Origin: an uncultured Clostridium sp.
GTDB lineage: Bacteria; Bacillota; Clostridia; Oscillospirales; CAG-272
Length of the DNA stretch: 32,630 nucleotides
Assembly: GCA_964564255.1 (NCBI GenBank)
Contig: CAZMAZ010000004.1
Span: 1 to 32,630, forward strand
Direction: 5' to 3'
In this document: positions 565-19,830 of the stretch, piece after piece
How the letters are laid out: the number at the start of each line of letters is the position of its first letter
Position numbering within the stretch: position 1 is the stretch's first letter
Notes under the pieces: generated by a model
The model's database searches: none
Seen by the model: the letters and a program-made list of their open reading frames with translations, nothing else
What the model was told of the DNA's origin: nothing
Made by a program: the position numbers and the translations under genes

Positions 565-819
565 TTACCAAGCGTTTCCAGATGCCTCTATTAAGCCCGG
601 TCTCTGCGGAAAGATATTACTCATTGGGAACGAATTATTCATTGCTTCTTCCGAGAAAATCATATCCTCTACCGGAGTCAGGTGTTCCCCATCAAATCCG
701 CTACAGTTGTAGTCTTTAGTAAGAACAACTTCTCCGGGAACTTTCGGATCGGATTTGAATAAACTGTTACATTCTACAACTTTGTACTCGACTTCTTCGG
801 CAGTGAGGATATAACTCAC
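565..819 (-). CDS. hypothetical protein (84 aa, GTG start), possibly a remnant of a larger decayed gene
   Basis: This is an ORF-track entry with a protein-like acidic composition. It has no ATG start and no clear SD. It is flanked in the same frame by other open segments separated by stop codons (see the finding for 260-960). Confidence 0.35.
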   Translation of the reverse strand: MSYILTAEEVEYKVVECNSLFKSDPKVPGEVVLTKDYNCSGFDGEHLTPVEDMIFSEEAMNNSFPMSNIFPQRPGLIEASGNAW

Positions 820-1215: not shown

Positions 1216-1668
1216 ATGCCAAGTGATATTAATTCAAATGACAGTGACTCAGGTAGTGTTCCTTTAGAAACATCAGGGAAAAAATCGATCAATGTGTTCT
1301 CATCTTTGCCACGGGAAATTACAGAGGATGAATTACAGAATTCGTCTGGAGCATTAAAACTACTTCTTTCTCATTATGATAGGTTGCTTTCTGAAAATGA
1401 AAAGATGAATGATATGTGCGCAGACTACCATAAAAAAGACAAAGAAAACGCAGTGTTAAATGAACGTTTATCAGAATTTAAATCAAGATGGATTTTAATC
1501 GATATTTCAAAGATGGTAGGTTCTTTGTTGATTGGCATTACCCCGTGTATATGGGATTATTCGAAAGGATTTTCTTGGTATATTATAATACTTGGAATAT
1601 TATTAATCGCCGGTTCTTTTGTTGCACAACGGTATTTTAGCTTCAAAGCAGAGGAAAATAAAAAATGA
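1216..1668 (+). CDS. membrane protein with a coiled-coil-like N-terminal half and two C-terminal TM helices
   Basis: SD AAGAGG lies 8 nt upstream. The C-terminus contains WILIDISKMVGSLLIGITPCIW and WYIIILGILLIAGSFVAQRYF hydrophobic segments. The stop overlaps the next start (ATGA). Confidence 0.7.
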   Translation: MPSDINSNDSDSGSVPLETSGKKSINVFSSLPREITEDELQNSSGALKLLLSHYDRLLSENEKMNDMCADYHKKDKENAVLNERLSEFKSRWILIDISKMVGSLLIGITPCIWDYSKGFSWYIIILGILLIAGSFVAQRYFSFKAEENKK

Positions 1669-2030
1669 TGTTGTTAGAAATACAATATATAAAAGATGCA
1701 GGAGACATTGAAAACGAAAGAATAGTAATGAAGGCATTAGCTGATTGTGATATTGGAAATTACTTTACGTTTTTGTCGCACTATGTGGATAAAACAAGCG
1801 TTTCTACAGAAGTTGTTTCGCCTTTTTGGTTTGTTAGTACAACGGTGTGTAAGGGTGATATTGTTGTAGTTTATACGAAGGAGGGAAAACGATCATCGAA
1901 AGTCAATAAAGATGGTTCAACGTCATATTTCTATTATAGAAATGAAACTCAAGCCTTATGCAAAAATGAAAATGTTTGCGCTGTATTATTAGAAGTTGCT
2001 CATTGGAAATCATCTGGTAAGAAACAATAA
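1665..2030 (+). CDS. hypothetical small beta-rich protein (121 aa), translationally coupled
   Basis: ATGA overlap with the upstream gene. The pattern ENERIVMKALADCDIGNYFTF...KGDIVVVYTKEG...NENVCAVLLEV is loosely reminiscent of lamin-tail-domain-like beta sandwiches. This was not verified. Confidence 0.65.
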   Translation: MMLLEIQYIKDAGDIENERIVMKALADCDIGNYFTFLSHYVDKTSVSTEVVSPFWFVSTTVCKGDIVVVYTKEGKRSSKVNKDGSTSYFYYRNETQALCKNENVCAVLLEVAHWKSSGKKQ

Positions 2031-2040
2031 TTTAATCGGA

Positions 2041-2175
2041 GAAGGGTAAATTCCCCGTCCCTTGGGGCGTAAAAAGATCCCGCACCGGCACGCTGCTGGG
2101 CGTGGCCCAGCAGTGAAACGCTGGTCGCGGTAACGCCGCGAAATCCCCGACACCGCGCATGCTCGTATCGCGGTT
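2041..2175 (+). ncRNA. GC-rich multi-hairpin element (candidate structured RNA or 3'UTR element), class unknown
   Basis: My hand count gives about 64% G+C over 135 nt against clearly AT-rich flanks. There are four GC stems: 2053-2056/2064-2067, 2093-2101/2105-2113 (9 bp perfect), 2126-2130/2136-2140 and 2152-2157/2169-2174. There is no SD-led ORF. Strand was assigned only from co-orientation with the upstream cassette. Confidence 0.35.
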
Positions 2176-2370
2176 ATTCAATAATAGCTTTGTTCTCGAC
2201 AGAATGGAAAAGGTTGGGGTGTTTTTGAGAAGAATTTCTGTGGGAATAACGAATCGCCACAAAGTGTCACTTGAATATGCTTATGATCATGTTTTGAGGC
2301 GGCTACGGGGCTACCAGAAATTATCTCACGGATTCAGAAAGCTGTTTTACACCTAAAGAAATCTTATAAG

Positions 2371-2712
2371 TTAAATTTTCTTAGCGAACTCCTTTTGTTC
2401 TTCAACTGTCATTTCTTCTGACACTAGATGCTCCAAAAAATACCGACAACCTTTTTTGACATGAAGGTTCTTCAAGAATATATGGCTGAAATTTATGCTT
2501 TCCGGAACGTCATGCACAGGATCACAAATAAGTTCACAAGCTCTCCTGGGAATCACGCTAAAATGATAATATTCACTTGAAGGCATATCAAAGTCTTCAT
2601 TTGTATTTCCAACAGCCAATTCTTTTCTTATTGTCAAAATTCTGCATTTTTCCTTGCAAATAAACGGATTCACAACTTTAGCCCTTTCGCTATTTTCATA
2701 AATACCATTCAT
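2371..2712 (-). CDS. hypothetical protein (113 aa)
   Basis: ORF-track entry. Its start overlaps the stop of the upstream HAD gene (ATGA at 2709-2712). It is the last gene of the long minus-strand block. Confidence 0.6.
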   Translation of the reverse strand: MNGIYENSERAKVVNPFICKEKCRILTIRKELAVGNTNEDFDMPSSEYYHFSVIPRRACELICDPVHDVPESINFSHIFLKNLHVKKGCRYFLEHLVSEEMTVEEQKEFAKKI

Positions 2713-3230
2713 TTCAGATACTCAATAGCCTTGTTTGTGATTGACTCCGTAATCCCGATATTAAAGTTAGTCTTGAAAAATTTTCCGATTTCAGACTTTA
2801 ATTCAGCTCCAGGATCGTCATCAATGATGGCGAAACGTTCGATATTCAAAGAAGAATGCTCGACGAGGTATTTCTGAATTTCTTCCCAACGTCTTCCAAG
2901 GAAAATATTGGGAGTCCTGTCAATCAAACGGTCTCCAGGCAATCCGCGACGGTCAAACATTGCCTTCGCATCGTTAAGGTTGCGGTATTTTTCGATGATT
3001 CTCCATTTCGAACTCCAAACGATGTTGCAGTCTGTCTCTTTCACGATCCTTGAGATCCGTTCTGCTAATTCAGGAATCACGAATTCCTACATCTGATCAA
3101 ATTCTTCGTAAAAAGCGTGCATGGCTTGAAGGTGATTGACCTTGTGCTCCTTCTTGTAAGTGGAAATCCAATGTCTCTGATGGTGAAAACCGTTTACGAC
3201 ACCGTCCATGTCAAGAAAAATTACCTTCAT
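2709..3230 (-). CDS. HAD-superfamily phosphatase (resembles the RNA-repair-associated HAD type), interrupted by one in-frame TAG at 3087-3089
   Basis: SD GAGGA precedes ATG 3230. The N-terminal part is MKVIFLDMDGVVNG (DxDG motif I). After ...EEFDQM-TAG-EF the same frame continues as VIPELAE...NIVWSSKWR (motif II Ser), then K and IIDDDP (motif IV). The track splits this into 3087-3308 and 2709-3080. Confidence 0.6.
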
Positions 3231-3367
3231 TTCTTTCCTCTCTTGTAATCCGGGAAGAAAATTCTGATAACCCGAGTCCCAAAGCCCACATATCGAAATT
3301 TCGTCCACTCTTCATGCTGTTTTGTTTCAGATTTGATGATTAAAAATCGTAATATTTCTTTGTATTT

Positions 3368-6591: not shown

Positions 6592-7761
6592 TCACCCTTT
6601 CACGACCGCTAACGGTCTTAGTTTTACGAGAATTTCAACGAGATCTTTCTGCTCTTCCATTACAACGTCGATATCTTTGTATGCTCCGGGAGCTTCGTCA
6701 AGATCGTTGATGCTGGAAATACTATGAACAATTCCTTTACTTTCCATTTCTTCCTGAACCTTGGAAAGTTCGAAAGTTTGCTTCGCTTTCATCCGGGACA
6801 TCTTTCTTCCTGCGCCATGCGAGCAGGAGCAGAGGGACGCTTCATTCCCTTTACCCTTGACAATGTATGAGAACGAACCTTGTGACCCTGGAATAATCCC
6901 GAGAACTCCTTCTCTGGCAAGAGTAGCCCCTTTACGGTGAACAATTACATCTTTGCTGTAGTGATGCTCAAACGCGGCGTAATTATGATGAATTGAAATT
7001 CCGTGGAATGGTACCATTTCCGGAATATGTTTTTGGATAGCGCATTTTACAGAGTGGGCTATCTCTGACCTATTCTGTTCCGCAAAGGCAAGGCAAAGAT
7101 TCATTTCTGCCCAATATTGTTCGAATAATTCTTCCCCTCTGGGGATGAACGCAAGATCATTTTTTACAATATCGTTGTAATACCAACGTTTGCAAAGTTC
7201 TCTTGCTTTTTCAATATAAAAATCTGCAACTTTCTTTCCGAGATTTCGAGAACCTGAATGAATCATAAACCAAACGTGACCGTCGTCCCCGTATTGGATT
7301 TCAATGAAATGATTTCCTCCACCAAGAGTCCCTAATTGGAGTCGAGCATGATCTAACTCATCAAAGCAAATTGGAGCAGATGCCGATCCTTCTTCGTACC
7401 AATGAACTTGATCAAAGAATTCCGTTTCAACAGGTTCTTTATGCCAAGTCTGACCAAGTGGAACTTTCGAGTGAATTGTTCCAACAATCTTTTCTAAAAC
7501 AGAACGTTCTGGAATTTCTGTCAAATTGGTTTTTACTGCCAGCATACCGCAGCCGATATCTACACCGATCGCATTTGGGCAAACGGCGTTTTCTAAAGCA
7601 ATTACACCACCAATCGGCATACCGTACCCTTCATGTGTATCAGGCATCAAACAAACATTTCCGATGAGACAAGGAAGTTGAGAAAGGTTTCGAGCTTGTT
7701 CAATCGCTCCCGGTTCCGGACTCATGCACCAAGACAAGATTCTATCGCCATATTTAATCAT
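6592..7761 (-). CDS. rtcB: RtcB 3'-phosphate/5'-hydroxyl RNA ligase
   Basis: Hallmark motifs are MPDTHEGYGMPIGG, GCGM, GGGNHFIE, HSGSRNLG, HHNYA, HRKGAT and CSHGAGR. The start is probably ATG 7761 with AAGGA 9 nt upstream. The track ORF extends to TTG 7779. Confidence 0.9.
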   Translation of the reverse strand: MIKYGDRILSWCMSPEPGAIEQARNLSQLPCLIGNVCLMPDTHEGYGMPIGGVIALENAVCPNAIGVDIGCGMLAVKTNLTEIPERSVLEKIVGTIHSKVPLGQTWHKEPVETEFFDQVHWYEEGSASAPICFDELDHARLQLGTLGGGNHFIEIQYGDDGHVWFMIHSGSRNLGKKVADFYIEKARELCKRWYYNDIVKNDLAFIPRGEELFEQYWAEMNLCLAFAEQNRSEIAHSVKCAIQKHIPEMVPFHGISIHHNYAAFEHHYSKDVIVHRKGATLAREGVLGIIPGSQGSFSYIVKGKGNEASLCSCSHGAGRKMSRMKAKQTFELSKVQEEMESKGIVHSISSINDLDEAPGAYKDIDVVMEEQKDLVEILVKLRPLAVVKG

Positions 7762-7784
7762 GATCAGTATTCCTTTCAAGATTC

Positions 7785-8081
7785 TTAATTAAAATCAATC
7801 CAAGAAATTTTAAAACACAACTCTCCCAGCTTTCGAGCAGTTCCAAATTCAACTCTGTAGCCATATTTTTGAGTTAGAATTGCCTTGAAGATATTGCCAG
7901 AGTTGTTTTTCAAATGGTTTTCGAATGGAGCTTTGCGTGTGGTAACATAGAAAGCAATCTTATTCTTTCCTTCGTTTGAAGCTTTTCTGATTTCGCTTTC
8001 AACTTTCGCGAACAAATCTTCGTGTTTGTTCTCAAAAGACTCAAAGACATATTTAGCAATATCGTTTGCATGTGTTATCAT
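7785..8081 (-). CDS. hypothetical protein (98 aa)
   Basis: ATG 8081 overlaps the upstream TAA (TAATG coupling). The track's longer start at 8102 is unlikely. Confidence 0.6.
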   Translation of the reverse strand: MITHANDIAKYVFESFENKHEDLFAKVESEIRKASNEGKNKIAFYVTTRKAPFENHLKNNSGNIFKAILTQKYGYRVEFGTARKLGELCFKISWIDFN

Positions 8082-16581: not shown

Positions 16582-17136
16582 TTACAAGGAACGAATTTGC
16601 TCGGAGATTTCTTTCGCGTCAACATTCACGGAGTCGAATGCACGGCAATCATACAATCCAAGTTCCCGGTGTTTTCGAAAAGCGACTTGTGCTCCTTCTA
16701 CCCGATCAACGATTCCAGCTTGACTGATTTTCTTTCCGCCATTCCGGAAAAGGACTCTTGAAACAGAGGTGAAAGCATTTGTATATAGCAAACACACTTT
16801 CACGTCACGTTTGTGGGCGAATTCCATTTCCATCAGGAACTTTGCGACATTTCCGTAAATTCCGGAAATCAGGATTCCTTCAAGGTAAATATCATAATCT
16901 GGATACTCTTTAGAGAGATGGTCGGCAAGATTGTAGACCAAGAAAGTAGACTTGATTCCGTCGCAACCGCCGCAAGCGTTGTCGTACTTTCCAAGTGCGA
17001 TTACCTTTCGTTCTCTGGAAACGGTGTACTTTCCAAACGGGTGGTCGAGAACCTCAAATTCTGGACCGATGATACCTCTCATCACAGTTGATTTTCCAGA
17101 GCCGTTTGCTCCGATAATCAAAGTTAGTTTAGGCAT
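16582..17136 (-). CDS. P-loop NTPase or kinase-like protein (184 aa)
   Basis: Walker A is LIIGANGSGKST and a Walker-B-like DIYLEG is present. There is an unusual ACGGCDG segment. The start overlaps the end of the upstream small ORF. Confidence 0.65.
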   Translation of the reverse strand: MPKLTLIIGANGSGKSTVMRGIIGPEFEVLDHPFGKYTVSRERKVIALGKYDNACGGCDGIKSTFLVYNLADHLSKEYPDYDIYLEGILISGIYGNVAKFLMEMEFAHKRDVKVCLLYTNAFTSVSRVLFRNGGKKISQAGIVDRVEGAQVAFRKHRELGLYDCRAFDSVNVDAKEISEQIRSL

Positions 17137-17362
17137 GATTCAGATCCTCGAAGTTGTAGGCGATTTCTTTGATTTCGGAAAGACCGAGAAATTTCTTGAC
17201 CGCTTCGGTTTGTTCATCGGTGAATTGAATCACCACCCGATTTCTGGATGGATGATACTCCTTAAGGTAATAATCCGGGATATTGTCCTTGGAAAGACCC
17301 TCTTCCGGCATCATTTTATCCTCGGCAAAAAGCGATTGAGTCTGATAATCTTCTTTCTTCAT
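17129..17362 (-). CDS. hypothetical small acidic protein (77 aa)
   Basis: It has an ATGA overlap with the radical-SAM gene stop and an 8-nt overlap with the downstream P-loop gene. Confidence 0.55.
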   Translation of the reverse strand: MKKEDYQTQSLFAEDKMMPEEGLSKDNIPDYYLKEYHPSRNRVVIQFTDEQTEAVKKFLGLSEIKEIAYNFEDLNHA

Positions 17363-19830
17363 TTTCCTACCCCTTCAAAGAAATTTCCTCTGTCAATATA
17401 TTTGTATACGATGTCCCCATTTTCATCTTTGACGATGTTTTTGTTTTCGTCATACATAGGGACAAGGGAGCCACGAAAGATACGATAAGGAGAATTTCCC
17501 TTTTTCGGACTGTTCCAAAGATACCGCATGTGTTCTTCCATTGTCATACCGAAAAAATTTGCACGATTCTTAGTGGAGTTCGTGTTCAATCCTTCTCCGT
17601 TGACATACGGGAACCCGGAGTAAATCGTATGGATATCTTTTGAAATATCAGAGTAATGGACAACGCCATTCTTCTTGGCAATACAGATCGCATTGGTCAT
17701 CTGTCCTCTGGAATAGTTCCAATCCTCGGAAAGACCGCAACAACAACCATTATGGCAAGCATCCTTGAAGTCCATATCGGAAACGTAAAACCGGAGTCCG
17801 GTCTCGTTGCAAGTTTCCAACATTCTCTTTACGAAAGGTGCTTTGACTTTGCGGTTTAAACGCAAGTATCCGGAGCCAATGGAATAGCGGCGATAAAACT
17901 TCACAATATCAAATCCGGCAAGTTCAGAGATTGTTTCAAACTTTTTGATCGCCGGGAGATTTCGAGTTTCAACACAGAAAAATTCTGTAGAAACGGCGGT
18001 TGCTCCTGCTTTTGCGCAGTCCTTGATAAGATCAACGTAACCGAGATTGGAAATACCGATAATGAAAGGACGGAGTCTCAAAGTTGCTCCACCAGCGTTC
18101 AGGTTGGCATATTTCTCGATTGCGGCAATTCTCTTTTGAGGAGAATCAACTCCGGCTTCGATAATACGGGCATGATCTTCACGATTGGTAATGATGGAGA
18201 ACTTACAATTCCACTTCTTGTTGCCTTTAAACAGCTCAGTATACCGAGGATCATCCAACCACCAAGTTGCTTTCGTAGAGAAGCAAAGCGGATAATCGAT
18301 TTCTCGGAAGAACTTCAAAAGTTCCAACGTCACACCGTAACGACGTTCAAATTCATCAAACTGGTCAGAAAGACCACCCCACTGCATAACTTTGCGAGCC
18401 TTGATATAATCGCCGAACTGCGAGTCATCCGGTTCGAGGAACATACGCTTGATTTTCTCAACATTGACGGCGTGAACTTCTTTACGGAGATATTTCTCTT
18501 TTGCGTTACCCAGACCTCTCTGAAATTGGGAGAAGCAGTTGTGACTCACCATTCCATTAGCAATGAAGTTTTCTGTTGATGTAGTAATGTCGTACATTTT
18601 CTGGAAACGTGCAAGACTTTCAATAGAAACGATTTTGTTCCCTTGAGGGGTTGGTTCTTTGATTGAAATTCCTTCGATATTGCATTTCGCCAAATCCATT
18701 CCGGTAAGATTCTGGAAGCGAATTTTTTCTTTCATTCCACCGAAATAGACGATCTTCTGATCCCCGTCATCCGCATGATACTTGTGTTGGAATCCTAATT
18801 TGTCCAAGCAGAAGCAAAAGTCATCGAGCATCTTCTGATCGGTATTTCCGAAACGACAAGATTCAATAGTTGTTTCTCCTTCCACATCGTAAGCACCTGC
18901 AAGGAATCCTTTGTAAAAATCCTCGTTGTCCTGCCACTTGATAATTCTCTTAATGGAATAGTAATCATTAGCATTTTGCGCTCTGATTGCCCTGGTTTTG
19001 ATTTCTTCTTTCGTTTTTCGATCAATCATCGGAAAATCGAATTCTTTCGCAAATATGCCAAAACGTTCAAGATAACGTTTTGCTTTCATTACGGCAGAGG
19101 TCAATTTCATAGCCAGGCGGAAACGATAGCACAGTCCATCGTTAGTCTGATATTCCGCAAGATTTCCATCTCCACGAATGATGCCGTTCAGATATCCGGA
19201 CATGTAAGCATCATTTTCAACATACCCCTTTTGAGTGTCGATTTTGAAACTTACAATACTGTTTTGGGTCGTCAAACGAGTTTCACCGATAGTACGTTTC
19301 GGCAAAAAGGTTTTCTTCCAACCTCTTTCCGTATACCAACGGTGTTCGGAAGAACAGATCGCATAACGACCATCAGCAAGCGTAACTTTGAACGCTTCTT
19401 TTTCTTCCGTGATCCATTTATTCAGAACAACGGACTTTTTGATTTTCGGGAAAGTATTGAATTGAATATCGACTCCAACAATTTCATCTCCAATTTCGAG
19501 ATCTTTAATCGCTTTGGTAGAATGATCCCACATAGTAATCTGGGTGTCTCCATCAAGGCAATACAAGCATCCATAATAACAGTTGCTGTAGGTGTCAAAA
19601 GTCATAGGCATCGAGCAGTCCGGATACTCCGCTGTCCAACGAGGAGAAGAATAGTCATGAACAATGACTGACCCGTCTTTTTGAGCAGATATAACCGGGG
19701 CGACATCGGTCTCATCTTCGGAAATGTTAATGTCCTCTTCGATCACGGCCTCATCTTCTGGATTGGTAAGGGACTCCAACTCCTGAATTCTTTTTTCATT
19801 TTCTTCCAACATTATTTTCTGTCCTTTCAC
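17359..19830 (-). CDS. radical-SAM enzyme (SplB / DNA-photolyase-like family) containing an intein
   Basis: The N-extein ends ...TYSNCYYGCLY and the C-extein begins CFSQFQRGLGN.... The joined sequence gives the CxxxCxxC [4Fe-4S]/SAM motif. The exteins total 482 aa and the intein is 341 aa. Confidence 0.8.
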   Translation of the reverse strand: MKGQKIMLEENEKRIQELESLTNPEDEAVIEEDINISEDETDVAPVISAQKDGSVIVHDYSSPRWTAEYPDCSMPMTFDTYSNCYYGCLYCLDGDTQITMWDHSTKAIKDLEIGDEIVGVDIQFNTFPKIKKSVVLNKWITEEKEAFKVTLADGRYAICSSEHRWYTERGWKKTFLPKRTIGETRLTTQNSIVSFKIDTQKGYVENDAYMSGYLNGIIRGDGNLAEYQTNDGLCYRFRLAMKLTSAVMKAKRYLERFGIFAKEFDFPMIDRKTKEEIKTRAIRAQNANDYYSIKRIIKWQDNEDFYKGFLAGAYDVEGETTIESCRFGNTDQKMLDDFCFCLDKLGFQHKYHADDGDQKIVYFGGMKEKIRFQNLTGMDLAKCNIEGISIKEPTPQGNKIVSIESLARFQKMYDITTSTENFIANGMVSHNCFSQFQRGLGNAKEKYLRKEVHAVNVEKIKRMFLEPDDSQFGDYIKARKVMQWGGLSDQFDEFERRYGVTLELLKFFREIDYPLCFSTKATWWLDDPRYTELFKGNKKWNCKFSIITNREDHARIIEAGVDSPQKRIAAIEKYANLNAGGATLRLRPFIIGISNLGYVDLIKDCAKAGATAVSTEFFCVETRNLPAIKKFETISELAGFDIVKFYRRYSIGSGYLRLNRKVKAPFVKRMLETCNETGLRFYVSDMDFKDACHNGCCCGLSEDWNYSRGQMTNAICIAKKNGVVHYSDISKDIHTIYSGFPYVNGEGLNTNSTKNRANFFGMTMEEHMRYLWNSPKKGNSPYRIFRGSLVPMYDENKNIVKDENGDIVYKYIDRGNFFEGVGK
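18538..19560 (-). mobile_element. intein with a LAGLIDADG homing-endonuclease domain (residues 91-431 of the host protein)
   Basis: It starts CLDGDTQITM (TGC at 19560-19558). Block B is AICSSEH. The two LAGLIDADG motifs are YLNGIIRGDGN and FLAGAYDVEGE. It ends NFIANGMVSHN (AAC at 18540-18538), followed by Cys+1 (TGC at 18537-18535). Confidence 0.85.

Follow-up and report, generated by a model that had tools for sequence, protein, structure and literature searches.

The locus analysed here raises the question of why a compact, GC-rich island full of hairpins stands between two convergent genes of a phage-like genome, and what kind of genetic object it is. The original prediction had offered four options: a processed 3'UTR RNA, a solitary CRISPR-repeat-like unit, a riboregulator with alternative folds, or a horizontally acquired fragment such as an att core. 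As a physical description of the island, that prediction stands. In the whole stretch of DNA that was analysed (32.6 kb, hereafter the window), G+C is 39.4%, against 63.7% at 2041-2175, where about 64% over some 135 nt had been counted by hand. Across the window, 135-nt G+C has a mean of 39.4% and a standard deviation of 4.6%; its maximum, 64.4%, falls at 2038-2172, and the runner-up region reaches 52.6%. The features that had been read in the sequence are all present on the + strand as listed: a stem CCCC/GGGG (2053-2056/2064-2067), a perfect 9-bp stem that was also recovered in the repeat scan (2093-2101/2105-2113), a stem CGCGG/CCGCG (2126-2130/2136-2140), a stem ACCGCG/CGCGGT (2152-2157/2169-2174), an alternative helix with one bulge (2081-2088/2121-2129), TGAAAC (2114-2119) and the repeated AAAT(T)CCCCG box, which takes the form AAATTCCCCG at 2048-2057 and has AAATCCCCG at 2141-2149 as its direct-repeat partner. 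The proposed comparison with shuffled sequences also came out as expected, with an RNA fold of the + strand at -63.5 kcal/mol (z = -2.95) that none of 200 dinucleotide shuffles equalled. The fold of the - strand is weaker (z = -2.26), and the + strand folded as DNA gives z = -2.31. Folds of the island contain three separate hairpins, not one, and in the + strand fold TGAAAC forms the internal loop of a longer hairpin spanning 2080-2129.

Upstream of the island is a 121-aa gene on the + strand (1665-2030), whose TAA stop (2028-2030) lies directly 5' of the motif TTTAAT, 6 nt before what we describe below as an insertion point. This gene belongs to a two-gene cassette. The downstream gene (2371-2712, - strand) is convergent with it, and the pair is without a consensus terminator; no U-tract terminator was found at the island, either in the terminal hairpin or by a terminator scan. 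The absence of a credible ORF, noted from the start, holds: none crosses the island, and the nearest (65 aa, 2159-2356) has its start inside the last hairpin and no Shine-Dalgarno sequence, where many other genes of the window have a recognisable one, and is probably not real. The island is single-copy in the window. Homologues of the 121-aa protein were found in three clusters. A 62%-identical homologue (L002) is followed by an unrelated AT-rich spacer without the island, and two 59%-identical homologues (L003, L004) are followed after 29 nt by the next gene, again without it; at 59-62% protein identity these loci are too diverged to compare the insertion junction. Since the island is absent beside the closest homologues of the 121-aa gene, it is not conserved with its neighbour. 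BLAST of the first 8 kb of the window and of the intergenic region against 50,697 phage records gave no match, and no relatives of the 121-aa protein were found in viral contigs. An exact-protein look-up of both flanking genes returned one contig of 2.5 kb, which is identical across the intergenic region (99.8% overall); it is the sole other contig with the locus, and an exact empty site for the insertion was thus not found. ARAGORN reported no tRNA or tmRNA over the window, and a tRNA-derived att core is therefore unlikely.

It is the left part of the island that reveals its relationships. In a permissive BLAST of the island against plasmids (7.3 Gb), 26 of 27 bases (2043-2069) matched an unannotated spacer of Trichlorobacter lovleyi pIAE1 (E = 0.04), and this spacer in turn matches two Xenorhabdus plasmids over ~100 nt; all of these matches were found by BLAST before any pattern was picked. 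The four-way alignment has a 5' module, ..TTAATC..GAGGGT.A.ATTCCCCG(Y)CCCTTGGGGCG, and a 3' module composed of ATaCCCCG, a hairpin and then ..TGTTCATT. Exact copies of the 20-mer ATTCCCCGYCCCTTGGGGCG (2050-2069) are present in three plasmids, in one viral contig and in at least 120 metagenome contigs; if the 241 million records searched have an average length of a few kb, chance alone would account for roughly one. From the 20-mer matches listed, 127 oriented copies were extracted. The family was collected with a pattern taken from the window, so that membership of a left end means 20-mer identity plus flanks and carries no independent score. A literal search of papers for the left-end sequence did not find it.

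Some members of this family carry their own transposase. In 12 loci among the matches listed, the left end is directly followed by an ORF starting MSEYIHKSHNVTVLLYHLVFPAKYRR, and two full-length ORFs match the Pfam family Y1_Tnp, 'Transposase IS200 like', with E = 2.6e-39 and 6e-36. Two loci, L143 (3380-4027) and L156 (476-994), are complete elements with left end, tnpA and a right end finishing in ..ATACCCCGCTGCTTGCGGCGGGGTAGTTGATT; in L156 the order is ..TTTCAAT, then CTCTTTTGGGTTTGATTCCCCGCCCCTTGGGGCG, tnpA (147 aa) and TTCATACCCCGCTGCTTGCGGCGGGGTAGTTGATT, after which the flank resumes with CCC.., and L143 is of the same build. BLAST of the full element of ~520 nt recovered plasmid copies in cyanobacteria, Ca. 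Megaera, Pantoea, Edwardsiella and Piscirickettsia, most of which overlie a gene annotated as 'IS200/IS605 family transposase'. On the Pseudanabaena PCC 7367 and Ca. Megaera plasmids the genes annotated in this way are flanked by similar ends, and the left hairpin reads CGCCGC-TT-GCGGCG in place of CGCCCC-TT-GGGGCG, a compensatory two-sided change that keeps the stem. Other members, at least 63 of them, are gene-less, with the right end ~30-135 nt after the left-end hairpin and a total length of ~85-173 nt, a range into which the 146 nt of the window element fall. Their middle segment varies in both length and sequence across the family and often has a hairpin of its own. In the right-end hairpin, 97.6% pairing holds across 42 distinct sequences, and two of its pairs show compensatory changes. 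The hairpins at the two ends of the family are homologous and have the same orientation, and the six bases just before the element follow the consensus TT[T/A/C/G]AAT. The traits of the family agree with those published for IS200/IS605 elements (PMC5027513, PMC10055086), namely a transposase of the Y1 type, hairpins lying subterminally on a single strand, integration 3' of a target of 4-5 nt and neither inverted repeats nor target duplication, and the gene-less copies fit non-autonomous miniature elements of the kind called PATEs or MITEs.

The termini of these elements are fixed by a natural comparison of filled and empty sites. A metagenome CRISPR array (L150), with the repeat GTTTCCATTCAATTGATTTCCCCAGCGAGTGGGGAC, contains three repeats that are each split by a ~95-nt copy, in the order GTTTCCATTCAAT, element, TGATTTCCCC.., beside 22 intact repeats in the stretch read. 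The copies run from CTCATAAAGGGTCGATTCCCCGTCCC.. to ..GGAGTTGTTGATT. Intact repeats read ..TTCAAT followed by TGATTT.., and in the interrupted ones the element stands exactly after TTCAAT. Insertion thus takes place 3' of TTCAAT, ambiguous by 1 nt and without target duplication, and the element starts at the C after AAT and ends in ..GATT or ..CATT. The short copies of the family are demonstrably mobile, with these termini, and the three insertions are an unusually clean natural demonstration of the target and ends of the element. A rare T in the left hairpin is common to these copies and to the window.

When the window is read against this family, sequence identity locates the left end at 2037-2069 on the + strand, comprising CGGAGAAGGGTAA, ATT at 2050-2052 and the hairpin CGTCCC-TT-GGGGCG at 2056-2069. 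It lies directly 3' of TTTAAT (2031-2036, + strand), the target or transposon-adjacent motif, which abuts it with a boundary ambiguous by 1 nt. The 20-mer at 2050-2069 is identical, with a Y at one position, to the left end of the tnpA-carrying copies, and the alignment to the family extends outwards, in the form TTTAAT, then C GGAGAA GGGTAA ATTCCCCGTCCCTTGGGGCG, to take in the target together with the first base of the element and the GGGT block. The flank motif AATC-N5-8-GGGT-N2-3 has two sites in the window when both strands are counted, one of them exactly at the left end; an HMM built on just the 24 nt that precede the 20-mer holds too little information and did not detect the window flank. 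Downstream of the left end, a variable segment at 2070-2140 (+ strand), which may be regarded as cargo, contains the hairpin 2080-2129 with the inner 9-bp stem and an alternative small hairpin at 2126-2140. This segment has no similarity to other family copies or to the phage, viral, plasmid and genome collections searched, and the central hairpin was not found in viral contigs. It is followed by the box AAATCCCCG (2141-2149, + strand), the counterpart of the 5' half of the right end, for which the family consensus is GATACCCCG, and by a divergent right-end-like module at 2152-2182 (+ strand), consisting of the hairpin ACCGCG-(11 nt)-CGCGGT (2152-2174) and the 8-nt tail TATTCAAT (2175-2182). 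On this map, the two boxes that had been noticed as repeats would be the homologous 5' halves of the left and right ends; likewise, the first and fourth of the hairpins noted would be the end hairpins, and the second and third would belong to the variable middle segment.

Target, left end and right-end-like hairpin with its tail thus occur in the right order, on the right strand and at the right spacing, which places the putative element at 2037-2182 on the + (top) strand, on the strength of homology to family copies and of a right-end-like match that is unique in the window. We infer that these 146 nt would be one complete insertion, in which a GC-rich cargo hairpin, private to this copy, stands between the left-end hairpin and a divergent right-end hairpin with the tail TATTCAAT. 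The flanks, ..ATTTAAT and AATAGC.., are not duplicated, the two ends are direct and not inverted homologues, and the rise in G+C stops exactly at the predicted terminus, 2182. The element is without an ORF, and tblastn of the family TnpA against the whole 32.6-kb window gave no match. Our principal reading, to which we give a probability of roughly 85%, is that the island is a non-autonomous miniature derivative (PATE/MITE) of an IS200-group insertion sequence of the IS200/IS605 family. Among the four options that were first put forward, a 'horizontally acquired fragment' came closest to this, except that the ends are those of an insertion sequence and the island is not an att core. The excess folding energy and the high G+C would then be by-products of the end hairpins and the cargo hairpin and not signs of a dedicated RNA.

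The part of this map that calls for most caution is the right end, and here an alternative has to be weighed in which the island has only the left end of an insertion sequence, fused with unrelated GC-rich DNA when a larger insertion decayed or through illegitimate recombination. BLAST matches other copies only through the left-end part of the window element, and a covariance model of the consensus right end, run at E ≤ 10, did not detect the right end in the window and gives its 3' part no score. The window has the stem ACCGCG/CGCGGT with an 11-nt loop where the family has CCCCGCTGC/GCGGCGGGG, and a tail ..TTCAAT where the consensus has ..TTCATT. The assignment of 2152-2182 as a right end draws on a post-hoc descriptor (a GC-rich stem without mismatches and at least 6 bp long, 3-12 nt of loop and the tail NNTTNA[AT]T) and on an 8/9 match of the tail TATTCAAT to the family tails TTATTCATT (L225, L237), with ..TTCAAT also present in a further copy (L212), and it is a probable one. 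The descriptor matches 34 of 98 family copies within 250 nt of the left end; in the remainder of these loci its rate is 0.018 per kb. In the window it matches once on both strands together, at 2152-2182, where shuffles give 0.125 per window; from this shuffle rate, ~0.0005 matches are expected within 250 nt downstream on the same strand. That a box AAATCCCCG, a GC hairpin and the tail follow in family order and spacing, and that the G+C island ends exactly where the element is predicted to end, also speak against a truncated fragment, and we regard it as unlikely. A second transposon reading accepts both ends and assigns a role to what lies between them: the cargo hairpin and right end would encode an omega RNA or reRNA scaffold for a TnpB or IscB acting in trans, with the flank as guide. 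PATEs 'often encode omega RNAs' (PMC10055086), and the cargo is indeed a long stable hairpin next to the right end. The full-length relatives examined (L143, L156 and two annotated plasmid copies), however, have tnpA only and neither tnpB nor iscB, no TnpB-like protein is present among the window proteins scanned, and the cargo is not common to any other copy. Rfam, which includes HEARO and IS605-orfB RNAs as well as Y RNA, ribozymes and riboswitches, has no match over the element at either gathering score or E ≤ 10, and a guide-RNA role must be considered very improbable.

Turning to the readings in which the island acts as RNA, a dedicated structured RNA (processed from a 3'UTR, regulatory through alternative folds, or selected as a terminator or stabiliser) would account for the better-than-shuffled folding of the + strand, for a G-U pair in the left-end hairpin that is possible on that strand only, and for the position of the island, which comes right behind a stop codon where two genes converge without a consensus terminator. 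Yet three DNA hairpins that a transposon requires or carries would give the same folding excess, there is no U-tract, and the most conserved parts of the island are the transposon ends, which recur in hundreds of unrelated contexts while the island as such is missing downstream of homologues of the upstream gene. Membership of a structured-RNA family likewise found no support, with 0 Rfam matches at gathering thresholds over the window and only chance-level ones at E ≤ 10 (two over 1900-2450, of which the better, M23, reached 18 bits where the threshold is 41.2). That a transposon remnant was exapted as terminator or stabiliser is compatible with the data, but taken as a whole the dedicated-RNA explanation appears improbable to us. 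We are similarly doubtful, and slightly more so, about a version in which the phage-like genome has co-opted the miniature transposon, its three hairpins serving as terminator or 3' stabiliser of the upstream two-gene cassette or its cargo being functional; in the bolder form of this idea the cargo hairpin would, if it is true, be an RNA or single-stranded DNA passenger travelling between hosts on an IS200-type chassis, that is, a cargo-carrying PATE. Least credible of all is the solitary CRISPR-repeat-like decoy, an RNA anti-CRISPR that would titrate Cas proteins because its hairpin and TGAAAC look to them like a class 1 repeat, and we give it next to no weight. The likeness, a hairpin followed by ..GAAAC, is superficial: class 1 repeat handles are 8-11 nt long, whereas only 6 nt follow the stem here, and these 6 nt belong to an internal loop of the helix 2080-2129. 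A scan for the pattern CTGCTGGGC-NNN-GCCCAGCAG with exact stems, covering one genome each for 185,579 species, returned at least 120 loci, all of them single sites and none arrayed; they lie mostly in high-GC genomes and are chance palindromes, with no similarity beyond the hairpin among the matches listed. The suggested comparison with host CRISPR repeats thus yielded no array with this hairpin among the listed genome loci, and the window itself, as had been observed at the outset, has neither a repeat array nor a cas domain among the ORFs scanned.

The miniature IS200-type element that we favour can be placed within a well-described mechanism. IS200/IS605 elements, with IS608 and ISDra2 as their mechanistic models, transpose in single-stranded form, a process described as 'peel and paste'. 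Their Y1 (HuH) transposase TnpA binds imperfect hairpins just inside both top-strand ends and cuts next to short motifs, which are recognised via 'guide' bases at the feet of the hairpins; the circle is re-inserted 3' of a specific 4-5-nt target, with neither terminal inverted repeats nor target duplication. The copy in the window would thus have entered 3' of TTTAAT during replication, in a cell expressing a matching TnpA. Because no tnpA lies in the 32.6-kb window, a TnpA from the host or from beyond the window would have acted in trans to mobilise the element. The ATT at 2050-2052 (+ strand), just 5' of the left hairpin and complementary to the AAT of the target, is a putative left guide. 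If the element influences the host genome at all, for instance by terminating or stabilising the transcript from upstream, this would be a side effect. According to the published account of the mechanism (PMC5027513), the circle that TnpA cuts out after binding the hairpins of the top strand is single-stranded, and its insertion 3' of the target favours the lagging-strand template. As its right end departs from the consensus, the window copy is possibly a fossil and may no longer be mobile.

Compared with full IS200-group elements, the window copy has a subterminal left-end hairpin that is identical over 20 nt to Y1_Tnp-carrying copies and lies 3' of the conserved short target TT-N-AAT, and it likewise has no terminal inverted repeats and no target duplication (PMC5027513), while its left hairpin and putative right hairpin would be homologues in direct orientation; it differs in being without tnpA and only 146 nt long, where full-length copies have ~520-690 nt. 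PATEs, the MITEs derived from IS200/IS605 elements, were first named in Haloquadratum walsbyi and are also present in Geobacillus stearothermophilus (PMC3119063, PMC10055086). With these the window copy has in common a gene-less build of two IS ends around a short variable middle and a presumed mobilisation in trans, but its 50-nt cargo hairpin is private and unusually GC-rich, with no sign of an omega RNA, and the phage-like genome around it has no second copy within the 32.6 kb. REP and BIME sequences, which RAYT (TnpA-REP) mobilises, are also GC-rich intergenic palindromes at gene 3' ends and are related in mechanism to IS200/IS605 (PMC8266576). REPs, however, reach high copy numbers per genome alongside a domesticated tnpA-REP, whereas the window has a single copy, and its left end belongs to genuine IS200-type elements, which encode a TnpA themselves. 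Both class 1 CRISPR repeats and solitary repeat units resemble the island in the short GC hairpin and the ..GAAAC that follows it, and differ in that no array among the listed loci matches, the handle length is wrong and the window hairpin is part of a longer helix within a transposon. Two further comparisons were made and dropped. Integron attC sites consist of R''/R' core sites (RYYYAAC ... GTTRRRY) bounding one long imperfect hairpin, and the island has three separate hairpins and no GTTRRRY at its 3' boundary; hammerhead, HDV-like and group II domain V structures were dismissed by eye against their consensus features.

The window adds one more copy to a type of element already described, a copy whose right end is atypical and whose cargo is private. 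Its main value is that of a correction, in that an eye-catching multi-hairpin island turns out, in our reading, to be selfish DNA of a well-understood family, which speaks for annotating 2037-2182 as a mobile-element remnant. It also gives a modest clue to the host, since the genome would have replicated in a cell expressing an IS200-group TnpA. The end motifs, TT-N-AAT followed by C..GGGT..ATTCCCCGCCCCTTGGGGCG ... GATACCCCGCTGCTTGCGGCGGGGTAGTTCATT, offer a means of filtering similar candidate RNAs out elsewhere. Stop-codon recoding was also considered, on account of an in-frame TAG in the neighbouring HAD gene, and set aside, as it opens no ORF over the element; this TAG is the only case among the long ORFs with family matches or a clean operon position. 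With the 146-nt island removed, the expected junction reads ..ATTTAAT directly joined to AATAGC.., that is, GAAACAATAATTTAATAATAGCTTTGTTCTCG.

Copies of the miniature IS200/IS605-type element interrupt a CRISPR array on the metagenome contig Ga0209511_1002141 (locus L150, 8300-10400, minus strand). The repeat of this array is 36 nt long, GTTTCCATTCAATTGATTTCCCCAGCGAGTGGGGAC, and three repeats are split by copies of the element of about 95 nt, each lying after TTCAAT. The element's target is present within the CRISPR repeat sequence itself, which is why the array has been struck repeatedly. Another copy, on the plasmid of Xenorhabdus sp. TH1 (locus L133), lies 38 nt from the end of a group II intron domain V-VI (3139-3215, minus strand; Rfam Intron_gpII, 40.4 bits, barely over its gathering score), and an IS6 transposase adjoins this site, so that several mobile elements are nested here in one patch.

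In the loci L226 (around 8040-8080) and L246, the copies are about 60 nt long and have been reduced to a single hairpin, ATTCCCCGCCCCTTGGGGCGGG(G), with the right-end tail ..TTCATT directly after it, which suggests that the element has a minimal form with just one hairpin. The copy in the window carries a cargo hairpin (2076-2133, plus strand) that starts AGATCCCGC.. and ends ..GCGGTAA. Because this hairpin bears a loose, weak likeness to the family right end (AGATACCCCGC..GCGGGGTAG), with a much enlarged loop, it may be a second right-end hairpin that has decayed.

Upstream of the element lies a two-gene cassette (1216-2030, plus strand) encoding a 150-aa protein, hydrophobic at its C-terminus, and then a 121-aa protein of unknown function, the two genes sharing a 4-nt overlap. 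Neither protein has a match in PADLOC or Pfam. Distant homologues of the 121-aa protein occur in other contexts, among them one adjoining TatD in locus L002 and one on the L005 contig with TIR_2 and GmrSD_N genes close by. Further upstream, positions 1-1200 appear broken up into short ORFs; one of 84 aa (565-819, minus strand) matches the Endonuclease_NS profile, covering only positions 40-114 of its 223, and the fragments are possibly those of a decayed nuclease gene.

On the other side of the element, an RtcB RNA ligase gene (6592-7779; Pfam E=1e-108) and the gene for a HAD_SAK_2 protein ('Swiss Army Knife RNA repair'; 2709-3308), both on the minus strand, lie less than 4 kb apart, and this proximity suggests that the phage-like genome carries a module for RNA repair. 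The HAD_SAK_2 gene is split by one in-frame TAG stop (3087-3089) into an N-terminal piece of 73 aa and a C-terminal piece of 123 aa in a common frame, and the identical split is found in an independent Logan contig (L001). Since this is the sole in-frame TAG among the long ORFs that either match a family or are cleanly placed in an operon, the split gene is a pseudogene or a case of isolated read-through rather than a sign of genome-wide recoding.

Elsewhere in the window, an 823-aa ORF (17359-19830, minus strand) contains an intein at about residues 89-431, which includes a homing-endonuclease domain of the LAGLIDADG type (Pfam Intein_splicing, LAGLIDADG_3 and Hint), and the ORF directly downstream (16582-17136, minus strand) matches a PHROG whose annotation is terminase small subunit.
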